Shown here: positions 1,607-20,523 of the stretch, in pieces | Position numbering within the stretch: the stretch's first letter is position 1 | How the letters are laid out: each line of letters opens with the position of its first letter | Assembly (NCBI GenBank): GCA_949841595.1 | Contig: CATKZB010000011.1 | Span: 1-32,000, forward strand | Direction: 5' to 3' | DNA: 32,000 nt | From: an uncultured Christensenella sp. | GTDB lineage: Bacteria > Bacillota > Clostridia > Christensenellales > UBA1242 | Made by a program: the position numbers and the translations under genes | Notes under the pieces: model-generated | What the model was told of the DNA's origin: nothing | The model's input: the letters and a program-made list of their open reading frames with translations, nothing else | The model's database searches: none

Positions 1607-2175
1607 ATGAACAAAGGAAGAAAATCAGTAGGCATACAGCAAGTGATTCCAGCAATTTCTGACAACAAAGAAAATTTGGAGGACAGGGTTGCAACGGCAA
1701 AAGGAGTTGCTTATGCTGAAAACAAAAAATATAAAGAAAACAAAGCGATTGCAGAAGAGATTCCAAAGATTGACGAAGGTTTGAAGATAAGATCAGGGAC
1801 AAGTGAATTGTTGGTCATAACAAAAGCGAAAAAACTGACTGCATATGTTGTGACAGTAACTGAAAAATCTCCAAAGCGTTTTAGAGCTGTTTTTGTGAAC
1901 AGAATGCAAAACTATTGTTTGGATACACTGGAAAATCTTATTGAAGCAAATTCATTGAGAATGGACAGTTCTAAAAACAGAGAGAAGAGAAAAGAATGTC
2001 AGCACAAGGTATATTTAAAACTGAAACTGCTTGGCTATATAACATTTCTTGCTTTGGAGAGTGAATGTATCTTAAAAAACAATATGAGCAAATTTCGCTT
2101 CAGCTTTCAGATTGTTTAAATTTGTTGGTTGCATGGCGAAAAAGCGATTCAGAGCGCCTTGGCAAAAAGACCTAA
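1607..2175 (+). CDS. avd: DGR accessory variability determinant (Avd-like four-helix-bundle protein), interrupted by a frameshift at A-run 2074-2079
   Basis: The ORF 1607-2119 contains KKLTAYVVTVTEKSPKRFRAVFVNRMQNYCLDTLENLIEAN. The expected last helix KKQYEQISLQLSDCLNLLVAWRKSDSERLGKKT* is in the -1 frame (stop at 2173-2175). The frames join at tt_A_AAA_AAC. Confidence 0.7.
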
Positions 2176-2265
2176 GGGGCAAAGTGAGCGAATATGCGCT
2201 TTTATGATGGATTAACTGTGGCGACACATTAATTAAGACAAGATTTAATAATAGGCGCAGCTTGT

Positions 2266-2375
2266 TTGGCTGCGCTCTGCTTAATCTAAGAACAATGTAA
2301 ACTATGTAAACAATGACGGCGACCTTAACGACAATAATTCAAACAAAACTAATTTAGGCCTGCCTCCAGATTTGC
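2266..2375 (+). repeat. DGR template repeat (TR)
   Basis: 110 nt matching 3949-4061. Read in the VR frame it gives W L R S A * S K N N V N Y V N N D G D L N D N N S N K T N L G L P P D L, which is rich in AAC/AAT codons. It is non-coding and lies between avd and the RT. Confidence 0.85.
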
Positions 2376-2392
2376 CTTAAAAAACAAAAAAC

Positions 2393-3604
2393 TTGTTTAA
2401 TCGGCCAGAAGTGTTTGCATCCAAGTGGAGCAATCGAGTGCTTAAGGCAAAGGAAATCTTGTCTTTTCCAAGTTCTCTTGCAGAATTGGAAGAATATGGT
2501 CATCTTGACAACCAATGCGAAATGCTTTGGAAGTTTACCCACAAGGAGGATGACCACAATTTTAAATACCAGGAGTCGAGAAGAGTGTTTGAAGAAGCAT
2601 TTACATTTGAAAAATTATTAGCTGCTCACAAAAAGTGTAGATGTTCTAAACAACACAAGCGAGCTACGATTTCCTTTGAAATAAATTTGGCAACAAATCT
2701 TTCCAGCATTTCTCAAAAAATTCTTTCTGAGAAGTTTAAATTGAGTGAATATCGAGTTTTCAAGATTTATGAACCCAAAGAGAGATTGATTGAAGCTTTG
2801 CCATATAATGACAGAGTGGTTTTGATGGCATTTTGCACAAACATCATTGAGCCAAAACTCGAAAAAAATTTGATTTATGACAATGTGGCTTGCAGAAAGG
2901 GGAAGGGCACATTGTTTGGTATCAAAAGACTACACAAGTTTTTGCATAACTTTTATCACAAATTTGGCGAAGATGGTTATTTTTTGAAATGCGATGTGAG
3001 AAAATATTTTCAAAGCATAAATCACGAGATTTTGCTTAAGAATTTGCATAAAACGGCTTTGGATGCAGAAGATTTGAAGTTTGTTGTAATCATTTTAAAC
3101 AGCAAAAACAGCGAAAGTGGAGTGGGACTTCCAATTGGAAACCAAACAAGCCAGTGGTTTGGACTTTTTTATTTAAACAAAATTGATCGACTTGTTAAAG
3201 AAACTTTGGGTGTGAAATATTATGTCAGATATATGGATGATATGATTTTGGTGCATCATGACAAAGAGTTTTTGAAGTTTTGCAAAGAACAAATTGAAAA
3301 GTGTGCAAATGAACAACTGAAGCTTCAACTCAACAGCAAAACTCAGATTGGCAAACTTTCAAATGGCATAGACTTTCTGGGTTTCAGACACATTCTAAGT
3401 AAAAATGGTAAGGTGCTATGTTTTTTGAGAGGTCATGGCAAACGGCGACTTACAAAAAACATGAGAAGTTTGCATAAACTGGAAACTGCTGGGCTTATTG
3501 ATGAAGAATATAAAGCTGTAAGGCTGAATGCCTATCAAGCACATTTAAAGCATTCTCATTCAAAAAAGTTGTATCTGAATTTGAAATCGAAATACAAATT
3601 ATAA
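2393..3604 (+). CDS. DGR reverse transcriptase (ORF opens at TTG 2393; the first ATG at 2522 is the more likely start)
   Basis: YEPKERLIEALPYNDRVV, FLKCDVRKYF, GLPIGNQTSQWF (IGNQTSQ at 3134-3154), YMDD (3230-3241), GIDFLGFR. No maturase or endonuclease domains. Confidence 0.88.
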   Translation: MFNRPEVFASKWSNRVLKAKEILSFPSSLAELEEYGHLDNQCEMLWKFTHKEDDHNFKYQESRRVFEEAFTFEKLLAAHKKCRCSKQHKRATISFEINLATNLSSISQKILSEKFKLSEYRVFKIYEPKERLIEALPYNDRVVLMAFCTNIIEPKLEKNLIYDNVACRKGKGTLFGIKRLHKFLHNFYHKFGEDGYFLKCDVRKYFQSINHEILLKNLHKTALDAEDLKFVVIILNSKNSESGVGLPIGNQTSQWFGLFYLNKIDRLVKETLGVKYYVRYMDDMILVHHDKEFLKFCKEQIEKCANEQLKLQLNSKTQIGKLSNGIDFLGFRHILSKNGKVLCFLRGHGKRRLTKNMRSLHKLETAGLIDEEYKAVRLNAYQAHLKHSHSKKLYLNLKSKYKL

Positions 3605-3667
3605 CGCATTTTCGGCATTATATAGTTAAGACTTGGGTGTAACTGAAAAATTTTTTACAAAAATGTA

Positions 3668-3696
3668 TTGAAAATAAGTTGTTTTTGTGATAGAAT
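3668..3696 (+). promoter_or_regulatory. Promoter of the DGR target operon
   Basis: TTGAAA (3668-3673), 17-nt spacer, TGaTAGAAT (3688-3696). Confidence 0.55.
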
Positions 3697-3739
3697 ATTT
3701 TTATAAATGCAAACATGCAAAAGAAAAAGGAGAAATATT

Positions 3740-5830
3740 ATGGCAATAAAAGTCCTTCCTATTGAAATTGGAAATACAGATGAAAATCAAGAAATGGGAA
3801 ACAAAAAATTCAACACAACAGATGCTGTGATTTTGGATTCTTATGATGATGTTAAAAATATCAACTCAAATTATAGAAAACGAAAAGCGACAGATTATGC
3901 AGTTATGAACGGCTGTTGTCTTGGGAGAAGCAATTCGAATGCCTATTATTGGCTGCGCTCTGCTGTCTCTCTGGGCTATGTATTCTGTGTAAGCTTTGAC
4001 GGCGACCTTTACGTCTACTATTCTTCCATCATCACTGATTTAGGCCTGCGTCCAGCTTTGCACCTTGATCTTAAATCTTTTATCTCCACGCGAAGCGTGT
4101 CGGGCACGGTGCATTATGATCCAAATGATAATTTATATAAAGTGCAAATGGGAGAATTCCCTCAAACTTATGTTAAAGACTCAGAAAAACTTGAAAGATT
4201 ATTCAAAAATGGCAGTTTGAGAAAAACTGGAAATACATACACTGGTTATATGAAAGACGATGGCAGTTTTGCTCAACATGAAGAATTTGTGTATAATGGT
4301 CAAAAATATGCCAGAGTCATTGTCAAAAAAGCTGATAGTGACAGCAAATTTAAGGATGGAACACTAGAGCCAGAAACTGGATCTGTGTGTTGGGCAAAGG
4401 TTGAACCAATATCTTTCAAAATAAGAAATTGGGATGATTTGCCAAAAGAAATCAATCCGAATGGAACTGGAAAAGCCAAATTTGTGAAGGTTGAAGCAGA
4501 AGATGCGATTTTGAGTGGGCTTCCTTTCTATCCAGAAAATGGACAAACAGAGCACACAATGTGGCAAAACAGTCTCGTTCGTGCTTATTTGAACGGATAT
4601 AATTTACATAAAGAAATTGACAAAGGAAACGGAAACAAAAAATTTAAAGCCTCCAGAAACTTTGATTTTGAAGGCAAGGGTTTCTTATACGAAGCAGGCA
4701 TAACTGCAGAAATGATTGCAAGTGCAACTGTGGAAGAAGATGAGATGACTGACAAAAAGGTCAATCCGAATCCATATGGTTTTTCTTTTGACGAACTTGA
4801 CAACGATCAACTTTTGAAACTTTATGTTGGTGCAAATGCATCAATCTTTTTGCATGGACCTTCTGGAGTTGGAAAGTCAGGGAGAGTGAAACAACTTGAT
4901 CCTACAGCAACAAGAATCACATTAAGACCTCAAATGAACCCAGAAGAAGTTGACGGAACTCTTGACAGAGAAACAGGAAAATTTGTTCCACCACTTTGGT
5001 ACACTCAACTTTGTGAAAAATGTCAACAAGAGCCAAACAGAAAACATGTGCTTTTTATTGACGAACTTACAAACGTGAAACCTACAGTGCAAAGTTTGAT
5101 CTATTCGATTGTTTTGGACAGAGCAGGAAAAGACGGACTTTGGCCATTGCCTGAAAATGCTGTTGTGGTTGCTGCTGGAAATGAAAATGAAGACAATTTG
5201 GCAGCTTATCCTCTTACAAATGCGTTGTTCAGAAGATTTAGTCACATTTATTATAAGGTTGATAAGTCAAGTTGGCTGGATTGGGCAACTGGCGTGTCAA
5301 AGATTCATACTCAAGTTTGTGAAACAAAAGAAACAGAACCAAGAGCAAGAATTCATCCTGCAATTGTTTCTTATATTATGAGCAGAGATGAAAACGTGCT
5401 TAATCAAGATTTGGATGAAGAAAATCCACAAATTGTTACAGACCCTCGTAAGTGGGAAATTGCAAGCAACGTGCTTTATTCAACGAAAAATCCTCGTGCA
5501 CTTCTTCCTGCAATAGGGGAAAATTTAACAGAAGATTTTGTTGATTTTGTTCAAAGCATTCATGTCAGTGTGGAAGATGTTTTGAAGGGAAATTTTGACA
5601 AACGAGATTTTCTTGAAATGAACATTAGCCAAAAATATTCTTCTTTGTTGGGACTTATTTCTGCAAAGGAAGAAGAACTTCCAAAAGTGCGAGGATTCAT
5701 TTCTGACACTTTGGGCAAAGAGCTTTTGGCTTCTTATGACAGTATTTGGGTGAGAAATGATCCTGAAAGAGCACAAATAATTGCTGAAACCAAGCTTATG
5801 ATGAAGGAGGACAAAGATGTTGTTAAATAG
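3740..5830 (+). CDS. DGR target protein: N-terminal C-type-lectin-like variable domain fused to a MoxR-like AAA+ ATPase
   Basis: The ORF track starts at 3707, but AGGAG lies 7 nt before ATG 3740. YYWLRS...GLRPALHLDL is the typical VR-encoded CLec end. Walker A GPSGVGKS (4856-4879), Walker B LFIDE (5051-5065), VVAAGNE...ALFRRF. No signal peptide or TM segment seen. Confidence 0.8.
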   Translation: MAIKVLPIEIGNTDENQEMGNKKFNTTDAVILDSYDDVKNINSNYRKRKATDYAVMNGCCLGRSNSNAYYWLRSAVSLGYVFCVSFDGDLYVYYSSIITDLGLRPALHLDLKSFISTRSVSGTVHYDPNDNLYKVQMGEFPQTYVKDSEKLERLFKNGSLRKTGNTYTGYMKDDGSFAQHEEFVYNGQKYARVIVKKADSDSKFKDGTLEPETGSVCWAKVEPISFKIRNWDDLPKEINPNGTGKAKFVKVEAEDAILSGLPFYPENGQTEHTMWQNSLVRAYLNGYNLHKEIDKGNGNKKFKASRNFDFEGKGFLYEAGITAEMIASATVEEDEMTDKKVNPNPYGFSFDELDNDQLLKLYVGANASIFLHGPSGVGKSGRVKQLDPTATRITLRPQMNPEEVDGTLDRETGKFVPPLWYTQLCEKCQQEPNRKHVLFIDELTNVKPTVQSLIYSIVLDRAGKDGLWPLPENAVVVAAGNENEDNLAAYPLTNALFRRFSHIYYKVDKSSWLDWATGVSKIHTQVCETKETEPRARIHPAIVSYIMSRDENVLNQDLDEENPQIVTDPRKWEIASNVLYSTKNPRALLPAIGENLTEDFVDFVQSIHVSVEDVLKGNFDKRDFLEMNISQKYSSLLGLISAKEEELPKVRGFISDTLGKELLASYDSIWVRNDPERAQIIAETKLMMKEDKDVVK
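3949..4061 (+). repeat. DGR variable repeat (VR)
   Basis: 113 nt aligned to TR by hand. About 24 substitutions fall at TR adenines, 3 do not, and VR has one extra codon. It encodes WLRSAVSLGYVFCVSFDGDLYVYYSSIITDLGLRPAL. Confidence 0.85.
4086..4110 (+). promoter_or_regulatory. GC-rich hairpin about 25 nt downstream of VR (candidate DGR target-recognition structure)
   Basis: ccacgc-gaa-gcgtg (4087-4099), with the alternative cgtg-tcggg-cacg (4096-4108). It is a conspicuous GC island inside an AT-rich gene and is absent downstream of TR. Confidence 0.45.
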
Positions 5831-6200
5831 TAAAGAAATTATTGAGTTATCAAAAATATCACCAGTTCTTGTGGTTGGTGCAAAAACTGAAGATTTTAAA
5901 AATGCCACTGTTTTGAAGGCAAATATACCTTCAAAAAGTTTGGGAGTGGTGAACACTGCAACAGGAATTAAGACTCCTCTTTGGCTTTTTCAAATTTTGA
6001 AGGGTGATGCAAGTCATCAGATTGTTATCGAAGAAATTGATAGCATTGATGCTTATTCTCAAGAAAAATTTTATGAACTTTTGAAATATAAAACAATAAG
6101 CAATATTGATTTGCCAGAAGATTGCAACATCATTGTGACTGCAAAAAAATTGGAAAATGTTTCTGCAAATATCGCTTGTTTATGTCAAATTGTGAAATAA
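5817..6200 (+). CDS. Small hypothetical protein, translationally coupled to the target gene; possibly a degenerate AAA-like domain without a P-loop
   Basis: ATG overlaps the end of the upstream gene by 14 nt, with AAGGAGG 6 nt upstream. IVIEEIDSIDAYSQEKFYELLKYKTISNIDLPEDCNIIVTAK resembles the Walker B to sensor-1 region. No GxxGxGK motif. Confidence 0.6.
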   Translation: MLLNSKEIIELSKISPVLVVGAKTEDFKNATVLKANIPSKSLGVVNTATGIKTPLWLFQILKGDASHQIVIEEIDSIDAYSQEKFYELLKYKTISNIDLPEDCNIIVTAKKLENVSANIACLCQIVK

Positions 6201-6210
6201 GAGGTGATTT

Positions 6211-7617
6211 ATGGCAGATTTTGATTTGGCAACCTTAAAAAGAAAGATGCTCAGAAAATACCCTGCTTTTGGGGCTGAAATTAATGATGTTAATTACAAA
6301 GTTTTTGAAAATGGTAAAGAAGTTTCAACAGCTTGCACTGATGGGAAAACTATTTATATCAATCAAGGATTTATGGAAAAAATGTCAGAAGAAGAACAAG
6401 TGTTTATTCTTGCTCATGAAGTGAGTCATATTGCACTTAATCATATAATGAGATGTAAAGATAAGGATATGAAACTTTGGAATATTGCAACGGATGCTGT
6501 TATCAATCAATATCTGAAGCAAGATGGTTTGCCTATGCCTGAAGGTGCGATTGATTTTGAAAATGAAAATCATTTTGATGCAGAAGAAGTCTATGAAAAA
6601 TTGTTGGAAGAAAAACAAAAGAAAGAAGAACAATCAAAACAGCAACAACAAAACGGACAAGAGCAACAATCTGGTCAAGAACAAAATGAGCAATCACAAA
6701 ATCAACAAACCAGTTCTGAAGAAAGTGAGAATGGAAATTCTCAACAAGAAAATAAAGAAGAAAACTCTCAAGAGCAAGACGAAGATATGCAAATGGGACA
6801 TGATGACCACTCTATGTGGAAAAAAGCAGTTGAAGAAGCTGAAAAAGAGAAGGAAAAGCATTCTAAAGAAAAAGGTGAGTCACAAGAAAAGAAAGATGAA
6901 CCAGAGGAAAAGATTGTTAGTGAAAAAGACTTTTTCAAGAAAAACGAAGAAGAAAAAGTTAGAATTGCTGAAGAGATTATGAAAAATTTGAGCAGTGAAA
7001 GACGGGGCAATGGTGGAGAAACTCAACTTGTGGAGTTTTCTGATATCGGGGATGCTGGAAAGCCTGTTGTGAATTGGAAAAGAATGCTTATCAGAAATCT
7101 TGAACTTGAAGATGAAGCTTGGGGACATAAGTTTTCTGACAAATCTAATAATTATGCTTCCAGAATTGAAGATGTTGAATATGATGAAAAAGCTGAGACT
7201 GAAATTATTTTGGACACTAGTGGTTCGGTGAGTGTGAATCTTCTTAAGAATTTTTTAAGACAAGTTAAAACTATACTTAAAAATTCAACTATAAAAGTGG
7301 GGACCTTTTCTGATGATTTTTATGGTTGGACGGAAATAAAAAGGGAAGCTGATATTGACAGTTTAAGGCTTTATGTTGGTGGTGGAACAAATTTTGATGC
7401 AGCAAGCAGAGCATTTTCAAAACGAAAAGATGTCAACAAAATTTGTTTTACTGATGGTCAAGATGGTGGAAATGCTGAAATTAGAGAACCAAGGAAAGAT
7501 ATCACATGGATAAGTTTTGAAAATCCAAATTTCAAACCAGATAATGGAAAAGTTATGTTTGTTCCAGAAAATTTGATAAATATGGAAATGGAAAAAAGTG
7601 ATGGGAATGTCAAATAA
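6211..7617 (+). CDS. vWA-domain protein with N-terminal HExxH metallopeptidase-like domain (DUF2201-like MoxR partner)
   Basis: ILAHEVSHIALNH (HEVSH at 6415-6429), WNIATDAVINQYL. A Q/E/K-rich linker of about 120 aa. MIDAS-like LDTSGSV (7213-7227). RBS AGAGGTG. Confidence 0.75.
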   Translation: MADFDLATLKRKMLRKYPAFGAEINDVNYKVFENGKEVSTACTDGKTIYINQGFMEKMSEEEQVFILAHEVSHIALNHIMRCKDKDMKLWNIATDAVINQYLKQDGLPMPEGAIDFENENHFDAEEVYEKLLEEKQKKEEQSKQQQQNGQEQQSGQEQNEQSQNQQTSSEESENGNSQQENKEENSQEQDEDMQMGHDDHSMWKKAVEEAEKEKEKHSKEKGESQEKKDEPEEKIVSEKDFFKKNEEEKVRIAEEIMKNLSSERRGNGGETQLVEFSDIGDAGKPVVNWKRMLIRNLELEDEAWGHKFSDKSNNYASRIEDVEYDEKAETEIILDTSGSVSVNLLKNFLRQVKTILKNSTIKVGTFSDDFYGWTEIKREADIDSLRLYVGGGTNFDAASRAFSKRKDVNKICFTDGQDGGNAEIREPRKDITWISFENPNFKPDNGKVMFVPENLINMEMEKSDGNVK

Positions 7618-7711: not shown

Positions 7712-8719
7712 ATGATTACTGAAAGTTTGAAGAGAAAAATTTTAAGCAAAGATTTTGCAGAAAGATTGAATGAAATTTGTCTGGAATCAAATAGTTTTGA
7801 ATTTTATAAAGAATTGAAAGCTGACTTGCCATTTCTTGACAAGTTTGTCAGAAATATGAAAAAAGATTGCAAAATGATTAATGTTTTTTCTAAAAGCAGG
7901 AGTTTGGAAGAAATGAACTTTCATGCTATGAAATTTTATGAAAATTTGGATGCTGAAATTTATGATCGATTGAAATTCTTATTGTATGACAAATCCACAC
8001 AAGTTTCTGTTTGTGATCCTGTTGAAAAATTTGTTTCTTCTTCTGCCTCACTTTTTGAAACTAATAAGAATGGTATGAGAATTGTTTCTTTGCATCCCAA
8101 AATGGATTTTGAAGGTCTCTTTTGTTATGTGCATGAATATGCACACCTGATGTGTGAGGATTTTGTTAATTTTAAAATGAATAACTTTGAAAACAACATT
8201 TCTGAAGTTCCTAGTCTTTGCATGGAAAAGGTTTATGCAAATTGGCTTGTTAAAAATGGGATTATCAGTATTGATGAATATAATTGCTTTAAACTTAGAG
8301 AAATAACTACCTTTGTTAGTTTTGTTGGAAAATTGTTTTTGGATGCGACGTTTTTTGAAATGGTAAAACCTCCAGTTACAGAACAAAAATTGCTTATGGT
8401 TGAATATATTTTTAATAATCATCCGATATTGAAAGATAATTATGAAGAGTTTTTGTTGAGACTTAATGAAATTGTGACAGAAAATAAACCTACCACTTAT
8501 ATTTTTAGATATGTTGTTGGAGAACTAGTGGGGGGGGTGTTTTTGGATGACTTCAAAAAGGATAGCGTTTCTGCAGTAGAAAGATATAAAAAATTGATTA
8601 AAAATATAGACAAGTTGAAATCTGATGAGGCTGTTGAAACTCTTATTGGAAAAGATTATAAAAAACGAATTGAAAAGAAATATTTAAATTCAAAGTTATC
8701 AAGAAATAAAGCTGATTAA
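7712..8719 (+). CDS. HExxH protein, possible short M3-like metallopeptidase
   Basis: YVHEYAHLM (HEYAH at 8132-8146), with a downstream ISEVPSLCMEK that resembles the M3 third-ligand region. Contains a G8 tract at 8530-8537. Confidence 0.45.
   Translation: MITESLKRKILSKDFAERLNEICLESNSFEFYKELKADLPFLDKFVRNMKKDCKMINVFSKSRSLEEMNFHAMKFYENLDAEIYDRLKFLLYDKSTQVSVCDPVEKFVSSSASLFETNKNGMRIVSLHPKMDFEGLFCYVHEYAHLMCEDFVNFKMNNFENNISEVPSLCMEKVYANWLVKNGIISIDEYNCFKLREITTFVSFVGKLFLDATFFEMVKPPVTEQKLLMVEYIFNNHPILKDNYEEFLLRLNEIVTENKPTTYIFRYVVGELVGGVFLDDFKKDSVSAVERYKKLIKNIDKLKSDEAVETLIGKDYKKRIEKKYLNSKLSRNKAD

Positions 8720-19745: not shown

Positions 19746-20523
<778 letters not shown>

Follow-up and report, generated by a model that had tools for sequence, protein, structure and literature searches.

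A MoxR-type AAA+ ATPase of cytoplasmic appearance carrying a retroelement-diversified, apparently circularly permuted DUF6273 module at its N-terminus in an uncultured Christensenella

Gene organization of the locus and anatomy of the retroelement

The 32,000-nt stretch of an uncultured Christensenella sp. analyzed here (contig CATKZB010000011.1, positions 1 to 32,000; in the following "the window", to which all coordinates refer) harbors a complete diversity-generating retroelement (DGR) cassette at 1607-7617, the genes of which are all located on the plus strand: an Avd-like accessory gene (1607-2119, 170 residues), the 110-nt template repeat (TR; 2266-2375) between Avd and reverse transcriptase, the DGR reverse transcriptase (RT; open reading frame (ORF) 2393-3604, with the probable start GTG 2585, as called in the related scaffold L001, yielding 339 residues), the DGR target of 696 residues (3740-5830), a 127-residue protein representing a degenerate AAA+ core fragment (5817-6200, its start overlapping the end of the target gene), and a 468-residue protein composed of a Zn-metallopeptidase, an E/K/Q-rich linker and a vWA domain (6211-7617). 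In the target, a linker connects a permuted DUF6273 module to a MoxR-like AAA+ module and a helical C-terminal domain, and the variable repeat of the protein (VR; 3949-4061, residues 70-108), defined by the TR alignment and by population hypervariability, lies within the DUF6273 module; we regard this anatomy as established almost beyond doubt.

The features by which a DGR is recognized occur together at the locus, namely an adenine-specific TR/VR pair, an RT with motif 4 and YxDD beside the TR, an Avd, and signs of retrohoming. The Avd-like protein matched NCBIfam DivGenRetAVD (E 3.2e-8, under the curated cut-off), the PHROG family "Avd protein of DGR" (E 2.5e-11) and, weakly, Pfam bAvd; in addition, its position 5' of the RT is conserved in 23 related loci. 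The RT matched RVT_1 (E 3e-16) and the PHROG reverse transcriptase family (E 4.5e-101) and carries the DGR-type motif IGNQTSQ (3134-3154) as well as YMDD (3230-3241); the end of the TR is separated from the start of the RT ORF by 18 nt, and in 23 other loci a TR was likewise found at this place. In the alignment of TR and VR, 23 of the 25 substitutions are positioned at TR adenines, accompanied by one 3-nt insertion in the VR. The TR contains ten AAY codons and 20 variable codons, corresponding to approximately 10^19 theoretical variants. The VR is the sole TR-like copy within the window; a hairpin downstream of the VR, as present in some DGRs, was sought in 4030-4160, and no inverted repeat was detected there.

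The target ORF spans 3707-5830; translation probably begins at ATG 3740, downstream of the ribosome-binding site AAAGGAGA at 3727-3734. A previous inspection of this DNA from its letters and ORF translations (the sequence-only reading) had described an N-terminal variable domain ahead of a complete AAA+ module, and every motif it named is present where it had been placed: YYWLRS (residues 69-74; 3944-3961), GLRPALHLDL (residues 102-111; 4043-4072), Walker A GPSGVGKS (4856-4879), Walker B LFIDE (5051-5065), sensor-1 VAAGN (5168-5182) and the arginine motif LFRRF (5225-5239). In the full-length AlphaFold2 model (mean predicted local distance difference test score, pLDDT, 85.8), a disordered linker at residues 323-340 is followed by the AAA+ core (approximately residues 355-520) and a helical domain that extends to residue 692.

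Circular permutation of the DUF6273 module

Pfam DUF6273 (PF19789) was matched by residues 4-110 of the target (E 5e-7; 30.3 bits versus a gathering score of 23.5) and by 30 of 50 family members, the match in the target covering only profile positions 59-171 of 172, i.e. the C-terminal two-thirds of the model. Residues 120-330 alone gave no DUF6273 match in Pfam; the permutation was therefore demonstrated by way of a tandem protein (P0177), a surface protein that has a signal peptide, Flg_new repeats and a tandem pair of canonical DUF6273 units, and the C-terminal end of which reads ...WWLRS...GVRPALVLALS. Target residues 135-294 aligned with residues 25-206 of the canonical P0177 unit (BLASTP E 9e-28) and target residues 25-111 with residues 235-336 (E 8e-6), whereas against the tandem protein target residues 25-294 formed one collinear high-scoring segment pair across the unit junction (E 1.5e-34). 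The canonical order, in which the N-terminal half (…W..S.R.WLN…) precedes the C-terminal half (…WWLRS…RPAL), is thus reversed in the target: the C-terminal half (residues 1-120; 3740-4099; Pfam and BLASTP), which holds the VR, is placed first, and the N-terminal half of the extended unit (residues 135-294; 4142-4621; BLASTP) is placed second. According to these alignments, the N-terminal 320 residues are to be read as an extended DUF6273 (CLec-like) unit in circularly permuted form, of the kind expected from a tandem duplicate.

DGR variable repeats are usually, not obligatorily, located at the extreme C-terminus of the target protein. The sequence-only reading had pointed to the unusual N-terminal position in the present case, and indeed the VR comprises residues 70-108 of 696; it still ends the region of DUF6273 homology, and it stands at the N-terminus because the permutation has moved the VR-bearing half, which normally ends the protein, to the front. 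The same rearrangement accounts for the "second" W-QNSLVRAYLNG-containing region (WQNSLVRAYLNG) noted in that reading: the region is present, but it is not a second domain; it appears because the N-terminal half of the DUF6273 unit follows the C-terminal half, and MWQNSLVRAYLNG (residues 274-286; 4559-4597) is located inside this N-terminal half of the same unit. A permutation of this type represents a structural answer to the problem of placing a fold that ends in a variable loop before another domain, and might be useful for the design of DGR-evolvable N-terminal fusion binders.

The module was modeled by AlphaFold2 (residues 1-345) as one confident body (pLDDT 91.8; predicted template-modeling score 0.89). 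Its Foldseek search against the PDB yielded nothing below E 0.1, no CLec structure being recovered, and sequence searches of the module and of the canonical DUF6273 unit against PDB sequences yielded nothing; in BFVD, the best matches were weak, namely the unnamed protein H7BW95 at E 7.6e-4, followed by a DUF6273 protein of viral origin at E 9.8e-3. The CLec-like assignment of DUF6273 is taken from PMC10743442. A phmmer search of residues 1-345 against 1.84 billion representative proteins revealed 721 relatives (98 at E <= 1e-30), most of them collinear with the target over its residues 5-320. Besides the ATPase fusions, the permuted module occurs as a stand-alone protein (330-500 residues; some may be fragments), fused to BspA-type leucine-rich repeats, and inside giant surface proteins. 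Canonical DUF6273 proteins were not found in the scan of the fetched loci, and tblastn of the module against 50,697 phage genomes gave no match. Directly downstream of the ATPase fusion, L054 (9148 onward) and L056 (9126 onward) additionally encode a paralogue of the permuted module as a separate protein (382-384 residues; motif WLRT...[VI]RPCVQL); in both loci, the genes of the small protein and the vWA protein precede the fusion instead of following it.

The ATPase and its conserved partners

The C-terminal part of the target (residues 351-696; 4790-5827) comprises the AAA+ module and the helical C-terminal domain. Pfam AAA_5 was matched at residues 369-500 just above the cut-off (E 6e-5; 23.4 versus 22 bits) and in 46 of 50 family members; in addition, phrog_1297 ATPase matched the AAA part with E 7.8e-38. 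The C-terminal half was modeled in the AAA+ fold, as the sequence-only reading had predicted: the best Foldseek matches in the PDB were the MoxR-family proteins NorQ (alone and with the NorD vWA domain), CbbQ, RavA and CHU_0153 (2r44), at E ~1e-7, with MCM subunits and BrxL scoring at similar E-values, and an hmmsearch of the family profile against PDB sequences retrieved only AAA+ chains (2r44 at E 0.0015). The Walker A, Walker B, sensor-1 and RRF motifs are kept in 46-48 of 50 homologues. Taken together, the ATPase is predicted to be a MoxR-type AAA+ enzyme with intact motifs.

The 127-residue protein aligned with the Walker-B to sensor-1 region of the target AAA module (hhalign probability 93.9%, E 1.5e-7); according to the alignment of 30 homologues it is devoid of a P-loop and exhibits a strongly conserved hhhhDxhD...Q.KFY.LLKY...LP motif. 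It adjoins the target in 51 of 70 loci, mostly just downstream, and may cap or bridge the ATPase ring. The 468-residue partner matched DUF2201_N (E 1.3e-30), DUF2201 (E 3.2e-10) and phrog_1314 (E 6.6e-61). Its metallopeptidase motif HEVSHIALNH (6415-6444) conforms to the HExxHxxxxH pattern found in 58/58 homologues, its vWA metal-ion-dependent adhesion site (MIDAS) DTSGS (7213-7227) to the DxSxS pattern found in 56/58, and the E/K/Q-rich linker in between comprises 135 residues. Positioned two genes downstream of the target in the window, the metallopeptidase-vWA gene was found near the target in 52 of 70 loci. The target is thus part of a conserved triad with the 127-residue AAA fragment and the metallopeptidase-vWA protein.

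Distribution of the fusion and relatives of the ATPase

The protein search yielded 379 relatives, more than 100 of them full-length (36-91% identity, 93-100% coverage) and encoded on independent contigs, and the ORF is not an assembly fusion, a possibility that the sequence-only reading had named as fatal to its proposal. Loci were collected by a scan of species-representative genomes, in which 144 relatives were found and 79 loci were kept; since the retrieval was pattern-limited and had an upper limit of 80 loci, all fractions of loci given here are sample estimates. The hosts of the 79 loci are mostly gut Clostridia, Eubacteriales and Christensenella-like metagenome-assembled genomes (MAGs), supplemented by about 20 gut Alphaproteobacteria MAGs and one Alistipes; at least 10 MAGs contain two to three paralogues.

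The recurrence of the fusion beside DGR RTs was borne out by profile searches: among the 67 loci with the N-terminal module and at least 2.5 kb of upstream sequence, an RT is located directly upstream of the ATPase fusion in 28 and an Avd in 23. A blind TR/VR scan revealed adenine-specific pairs in 22 related loci (e.g. 25/25, 23/23 and 19/19 substitutions at adenines); in all 22, Avd and RT enclose the TR, and the VR is positioned 200-330 nt into the target gene. The N-terminal VR is therefore a family trait in two phyla. A second TR/VR-like pair was observed in L036 (2482-2570 and 11944-12032; 19 of 25 mismatches at adenines, two gaps), the two members being 9.4 kb apart and outside the ATPase gene, in a locus without an RT beside its ATPase; the pair could represent another DGR target or a chance match.

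The N-terminal domain is exchangeable on the same type of motor. Bacterial ATPases of approximately 65-70% identity bear other N-terminal domains, i.e. WG repeats (P0056) or another repeat array (P0007), and relatives of both types keep the small protein and the vWA partner. In P0007 (L085, 281-2737; 70% identity), two tandem AAA modules follow an array of ~30-residue repeats (...GADIKAHGQAVIDSGD...); the gene is succeeded by the same small protein and vWA partner, an MmeI-type methyltransferase/restriction gene and a HATPase_c_3 gene. A more distant ATPase, 24-28% identical to the target AAA part, is encoded by 553 phage genomes; in N4-like Acinetobacter phage, the gene order is MoxR-like ATPase, small ORF, DUF2201_N + DUF2201. 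The phage small ORF was considered as the counterpart of the 127-residue protein, and no similarity was detected. The N-terminal module fusion was absent from 2.9 million viral contigs, in which only the bare ATPase was found (26-36% identity, from query residue 357 onward). As judged from these searches, the fused form is cellular rather than viral.

Retrohoming activity and population variation

The 337-kb metagenomic scaffold L001 is 95.8% identical to the window over 13.8 kb. The two TRs differ at 13 positions, and of the 18 non-A TR bases at these sites 17 recur in the VR of the same strain; retrohoming must therefore have occurred after the two TRs diverged. The 11 proteins in the 90% cluster of the window protein differ mainly in the VR, with practically no change in the ATPase half. 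The same pattern was observed in a second lineage (P0017; 61% identical to the target, with Avd and RT upstream in L087): its 12 full-length natural variants of 718 residues are almost invariant outside the VR, with three single-residue differences elsewhere, whereas up to eight different residues per column occur at residues 85-112. These patterns of variation indicate that the DGR is active, its RT copying the TR with adenine-specific errors into target codons 70-108.

Some features of the locus would also fit a decaying relic, or an ORF of chimeric assembly, whose architecture carries no functional meaning: two TR/VR mismatches are not at adenines, the VR contains a 3-nt indel, the TR has an in-frame TAA (2282-2284), and 39 of the 67 related loci are without an adjacent RT. 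However, the VRs follow their own TRs at 17/18 sites, hypervariation is limited to the VR in two lineages, the TAA is common to L001 with a different codon in the VR there, and more than 100 full-length homologues as well as a confident AlphaFold2 model exist for the protein. Both the assembly chimera and the dead DGR were consequently rejected on the basis of the homologues, the TR tracking and the VR-limited population variation, and such an explanation is barely credible.

Several details of the repeats were observed in addition. The TAA is present in the L001 TR, whose VR has TTT at this site, and is therefore regarded as ancestral; the window VR has GTC opposite the TAA (3965-3967), so that a T-to-G change, one not at an adenine, must have taken place. 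The TR also contains AAG and AAA codons from which stops can arise by mutation. The VR insertion (4011-4016) amounts to one codon, rendering the window VR 3 nt longer than its own TR; the window and L001 TRs are equally long, and the L001 VR has the length of the L001 TR. Another, different one-codon VR insertion is present in the cluster member P0271. As the VR indels differ by strain, they apparently arise and persist between homing events. Just 5' of the VR, the segment 3900-3948 (target residues 57-69, NGCCL-GRSNSNAYY) occurs in three discrete haplotypes with indels among the cluster members; this variation is not explained by retrohoming because it lies outside the TR, and possibly results from recombination or older divergence.

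Predicted cellular location

The location of the proteins was assessed by Kyte-Doolittle hydropathy in 19-residue windows, a heuristic measure. In line with the sequence-only reading, which had seen neither signal peptide nor transmembrane helix, no 19-residue window above 1.4 was detected in the target or in 49 homologues, and the 127-residue, vWA and 335-residue proteins (the last encoded downstream of the cassette, see below) are likewise free of such a segment; the lipoprotein ORF at 704-1306 served as positive control and scored 2.57. By this measure, target and partners look cytoplasmic. It is very improbable that the target acts outside the cell or on its surface like a classical DGR binder, leaving the cell by non-classical export or lysis and employing its ATPase only for assembly: although canonical relatives of the N-terminal module are surface proteins with signal peptide and Flg_new repeats (P0177, P0143) and some relatives are fused to BspA-type leucine-rich repeats, a signal peptide or transmembrane segment was detected in none of the 50 family members or of the partners, which are all soluble as well, and the ATP-binding site, intact and conserved, is part of the target polypeptide and depends on ATP from the cytoplasm.

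Genomic neighborhood

The G+C content is approximately 33% across the whole window. Upstream of the cassette, a tRNA-Leu (306-391) and a lipoprotein-like Big_3 ORF (704-1306) are located. The last 21 nt of the tRNA-Leu (371-391) together with the next 33 nt recur at 1478-1531 (copy of 371-424; 89% identity), with three mismatches in the tRNA part and no such match expected by chance; the two repeats flank the Big_3 lipoprotein gene just upstream of the DGR cassette and may be an att-like scar of integration at the tRNA. Downstream of the cassette, a 335-residue ORF (7712-8719) with an HEYAH motif (8132-8146) precedes recJ, relA, a radical-SAM gene, pnp and other chromosomal genes (8843 onward). 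This ORF gave no match in Pfam, NCBIfam, PADLOC or PHROG; it was considered as a fourth component, but with homologues detected in no loci other than L001 and L002, which are of the same species, it can be counted only doubtfully as part of the system. The L001 gene call is split into a 279-residue and a 34-residue ORF, pointing to a frameshift or a stop codon by which the strains differ. Farther downstream, 19759-20523 encodes a collagen-repeat protein with a BclA C-terminal domain (an exosporium-type glycoprotein), suggesting a spore-forming organism.

The tRNA repeat and the phage relatives raise the question of whether the cassette serves an integrated mobile element, either in superinfection exclusion or in neutralizing host defence. 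In favor of such a role, the phage family matches are strong (phrog_1297, E 7.8e-38; phrog_1314, E 6.6e-61), the ATPase/vWA couple is present in 553 phage records, DUF6273 is a typical DGR target of gut phages (PMC10743442; bioRxiv 10.1101/2024.10.15.618418), some related loci adjoin MobL and integrase genes (L004) or SNF2 and primase genes (L087), and a partial copy of the tRNA-Leu 3' end is located just upstream of the cassette. In the window, however, neither phage structural genes nor an integrase or further mobility genes are present; the fused form was encountered on no viral contig and its N-terminal module in none of the 50,697 phage genomes, and different strains retain the gene order rpoC ... 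cassette ... recJ-relA. We therefore consider a service to a mobile element unlikely.

Proposed function

From the combination of DGR, sensor-like domain, MoxR-type motor and vWA partner, the cassette could be a MoxR-vWA conflict system that carries its DGR-diversified sensor on the motor instead of on the vWA protein, an assignment that we see as evenly poised; by analogy with described systems, the anti-phage role suggested in the sequence-only reading is plausible. In such a system, the permuted CLec module would act as a reprogrammable sensor of an intracellular macromolecule, most likely a phage or mobile-element protein; ligand bound on the N-terminal face of the AAA+ ring might gate ring assembly or ATPase activity. 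As in NorQ-NorD, CbbQ-CbbO and RavA-ViaA, the ring would then remodel the vWA co-chaperone, acting on the charged linker or the MIDAS of the latter, and the remodeling could activate or aim the tethered metallopeptidase, which would cleave the captured ligand or host proteins. The modularity of the family is sensor-like: the N-terminal domain is swappable on the same ATPase, several paralogues occur per genome, and the phage relatives of the ATPase have no N-terminal domain.

Several observations weigh against the diversified conflict system. The in-frame TAA of the TR, together with the 3-nt VR insertion, would render some retrohoming events lethal to the gene; the 39 of 67 loci without an adjacent RT indicate that diversification is optional; the structural search did not recover a CLec fold for the module; and the neighborhood is one of housekeeping genes (RecJ, RelA, PNPase) and not a defence island. 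PADLOC-DB 2.0 has no model for such a system and gave no system-level match, its matches being restricted to generic RT models and weak DolB (E 0.006) and CapP (E 2e-4) hits. Finally, the homologous ATPase/vWA couple of phages has been proposed to function in virion assembly, i.e. in a non-immune process (PMC7824862).

An alternative is a chaperone or quality-control machine without immune function, the variable module of which would be a substrate adaptor for fast-changing own proteins, such as envelope or sporulation proteins before export. The characterized MoxR-vWA couples RavA-ViaA, CbbQ-CbbO and NorQ-NorD are assembly or maturation chaperones and at the same time the best structural matches, the window context is housekeeping, and the phage homologues were proposed for assembly and processing (PMC7824862). 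A housekeeping substrate, however, gives no reason for an approximately 10^19-fold hypermutation and the population turnover of the VR, nor for the swapping of N-terminal domains and the several paralogues per genome; the patchy, phylum-crossing distribution is likewise at variance with it. The probability that we assign to a chaperone of this kind is accordingly small.

Extending the conflict-system interpretation, it can tentatively be proposed, though we hold it for rather doubtful, that unicellular gut bacteria operate a protein-level, adaptive-like receptor, in which the CLec pocket, continually rewritten by the DGR, is displayed six-fold on a protease-activating MoxR ring, unlike in VMAP and STAND systems. 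Variants that capture a phage or plasmid protein would trigger the vWA-tethered metallopeptidase in an ATP-dependent manner, with the result that the captured protein is destroyed or the cell is killed. With six genes on ~6 kb, catalytic motifs that are all intact, and natural VR libraries, the compact cassette offers a tractable model for the question of whether DGRs confer anticipatory immunity.

Comparison with known systems

DGR-diversified CLec sensors in MoxR-vWA conflict systems, with some targets predicted to be cytoplasmic, have been documented in cyanobacteria and gammaproteobacteria by Kaur et al. 2020 (PMC7159879) and Doré et al. 2024 (PMC10907252); the concept of a DGR sensor is therefore not new. 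These systems share with the present cassette the DGR, a CLec-type domain, a MoxR-like AAA+ protein, a vWA protein and the proposed role of a hypervariable antigen sensor. In contrast to the cassette, their CLec/FGS domain is C-terminal and usually located on the vWA protein, with MoxR as a separate protein, whereas here the permuted DUF6273 module is located N-terminally on the ATPase; their vWA proteins bear trypsin, caspase, TIR or EAD modules, whereas the vWA protein of the cassette carries an N-terminal metallopeptidase only; and their hosts belong to multicellular lineages, whereas those of the present family are gut Clostridia and Alphaproteobacteria MAGs. No cassette gene gave a VMAP family hit in Pfam or NCBIfam, the third gene being a degenerate AAA fragment. 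The cassette thus cannot be assigned to the VMAP ternary systems: it lacks a VMAP, its CLec-like domain is borne by the MoxR ATPase instead of the vWA protein, so that no separate MoxR gene exists, and its hosts fall outside the multicellular lineages.

The motor and its partner have their closest counterpart in the chaperone/co-chaperone couple of MoxR and metallopeptidase-vWA proteins described from jumbo phages (Iyer et al. 2021, PMC7824862): the ATPase is homologous, the partner likewise consists of metallopeptidase, linker and vWA domain, and the two genes follow each other in the same order, again separated by a small ORF. The phage ATPase, however, comprises approximately 340 residues without sensor domain or DGR, and the phage small ORF is unrelated to the 127-residue protein. 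The diversified module, for its part, resembles the DUF6273 targets of gut phages (PMC10743442; bioRxiv 10.1101/2024.10.15.618418), among them the "tentaclins" (Baykov et al. 2023, PMC10743442), virion proteins with N-terminal DUF6273 and a VR near the 5' end: in both cases the VR is located in the WLRS...RPAL end of an N-terminal domain, and the environment is the gut. These phage targets are virion receptor-binding or decoration proteins in which the domain is followed by Ig/Fn3 domains, whereas in the present protein it is permuted, followed by an ATPase, chromosomally encoded and apparently cytoplasmic.

A more general likeness exists to the STAND/NLR targets of DGRs (NACHT or nSTAND1 with C-terminal CLec; PMC10907252) and to Avs, which equally combine an oligomerizing P-loop NTPase with a swappable or hypervariable sensor; unlike these, the target belongs to the MoxR/AAA_5 helix-2-insert clade, its sensor is N-terminal, and the effector resides on a separate vWA protein. 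In the survey of Wu et al. (PMC5758913), only three DGRs had an N-terminal VR, and NTPase targets had the NTPase upstream of a C-terminal VR. The sequence-only reading had not recognized the exact architecture as that of a described system, which holds for one of its aspects: neither a fusion of DUF6273 to AAA_5 nor a permuted DUF6273 was found described in the literature searched, many subscription-journal papers lying outside that search, whereas the wiring of DGR-diversified CLec domain, MoxR and vWA protein had already been published. The apparently novel aspect is the direct fusion of the permuted VR domain to the ATPase itself, for which we found no description. By placing the hypervariable domain on the motor, the cassette represents a different wiring, and intracellular sensing with DGR-diversified domains, so far tied to a few multicellular lineages, would be extended by it to gut anaerobes that are common but uncultured; in addition, it may teach the role of the MoxR and metallopeptidase-vWA couple that is widespread in phages and bacteria.

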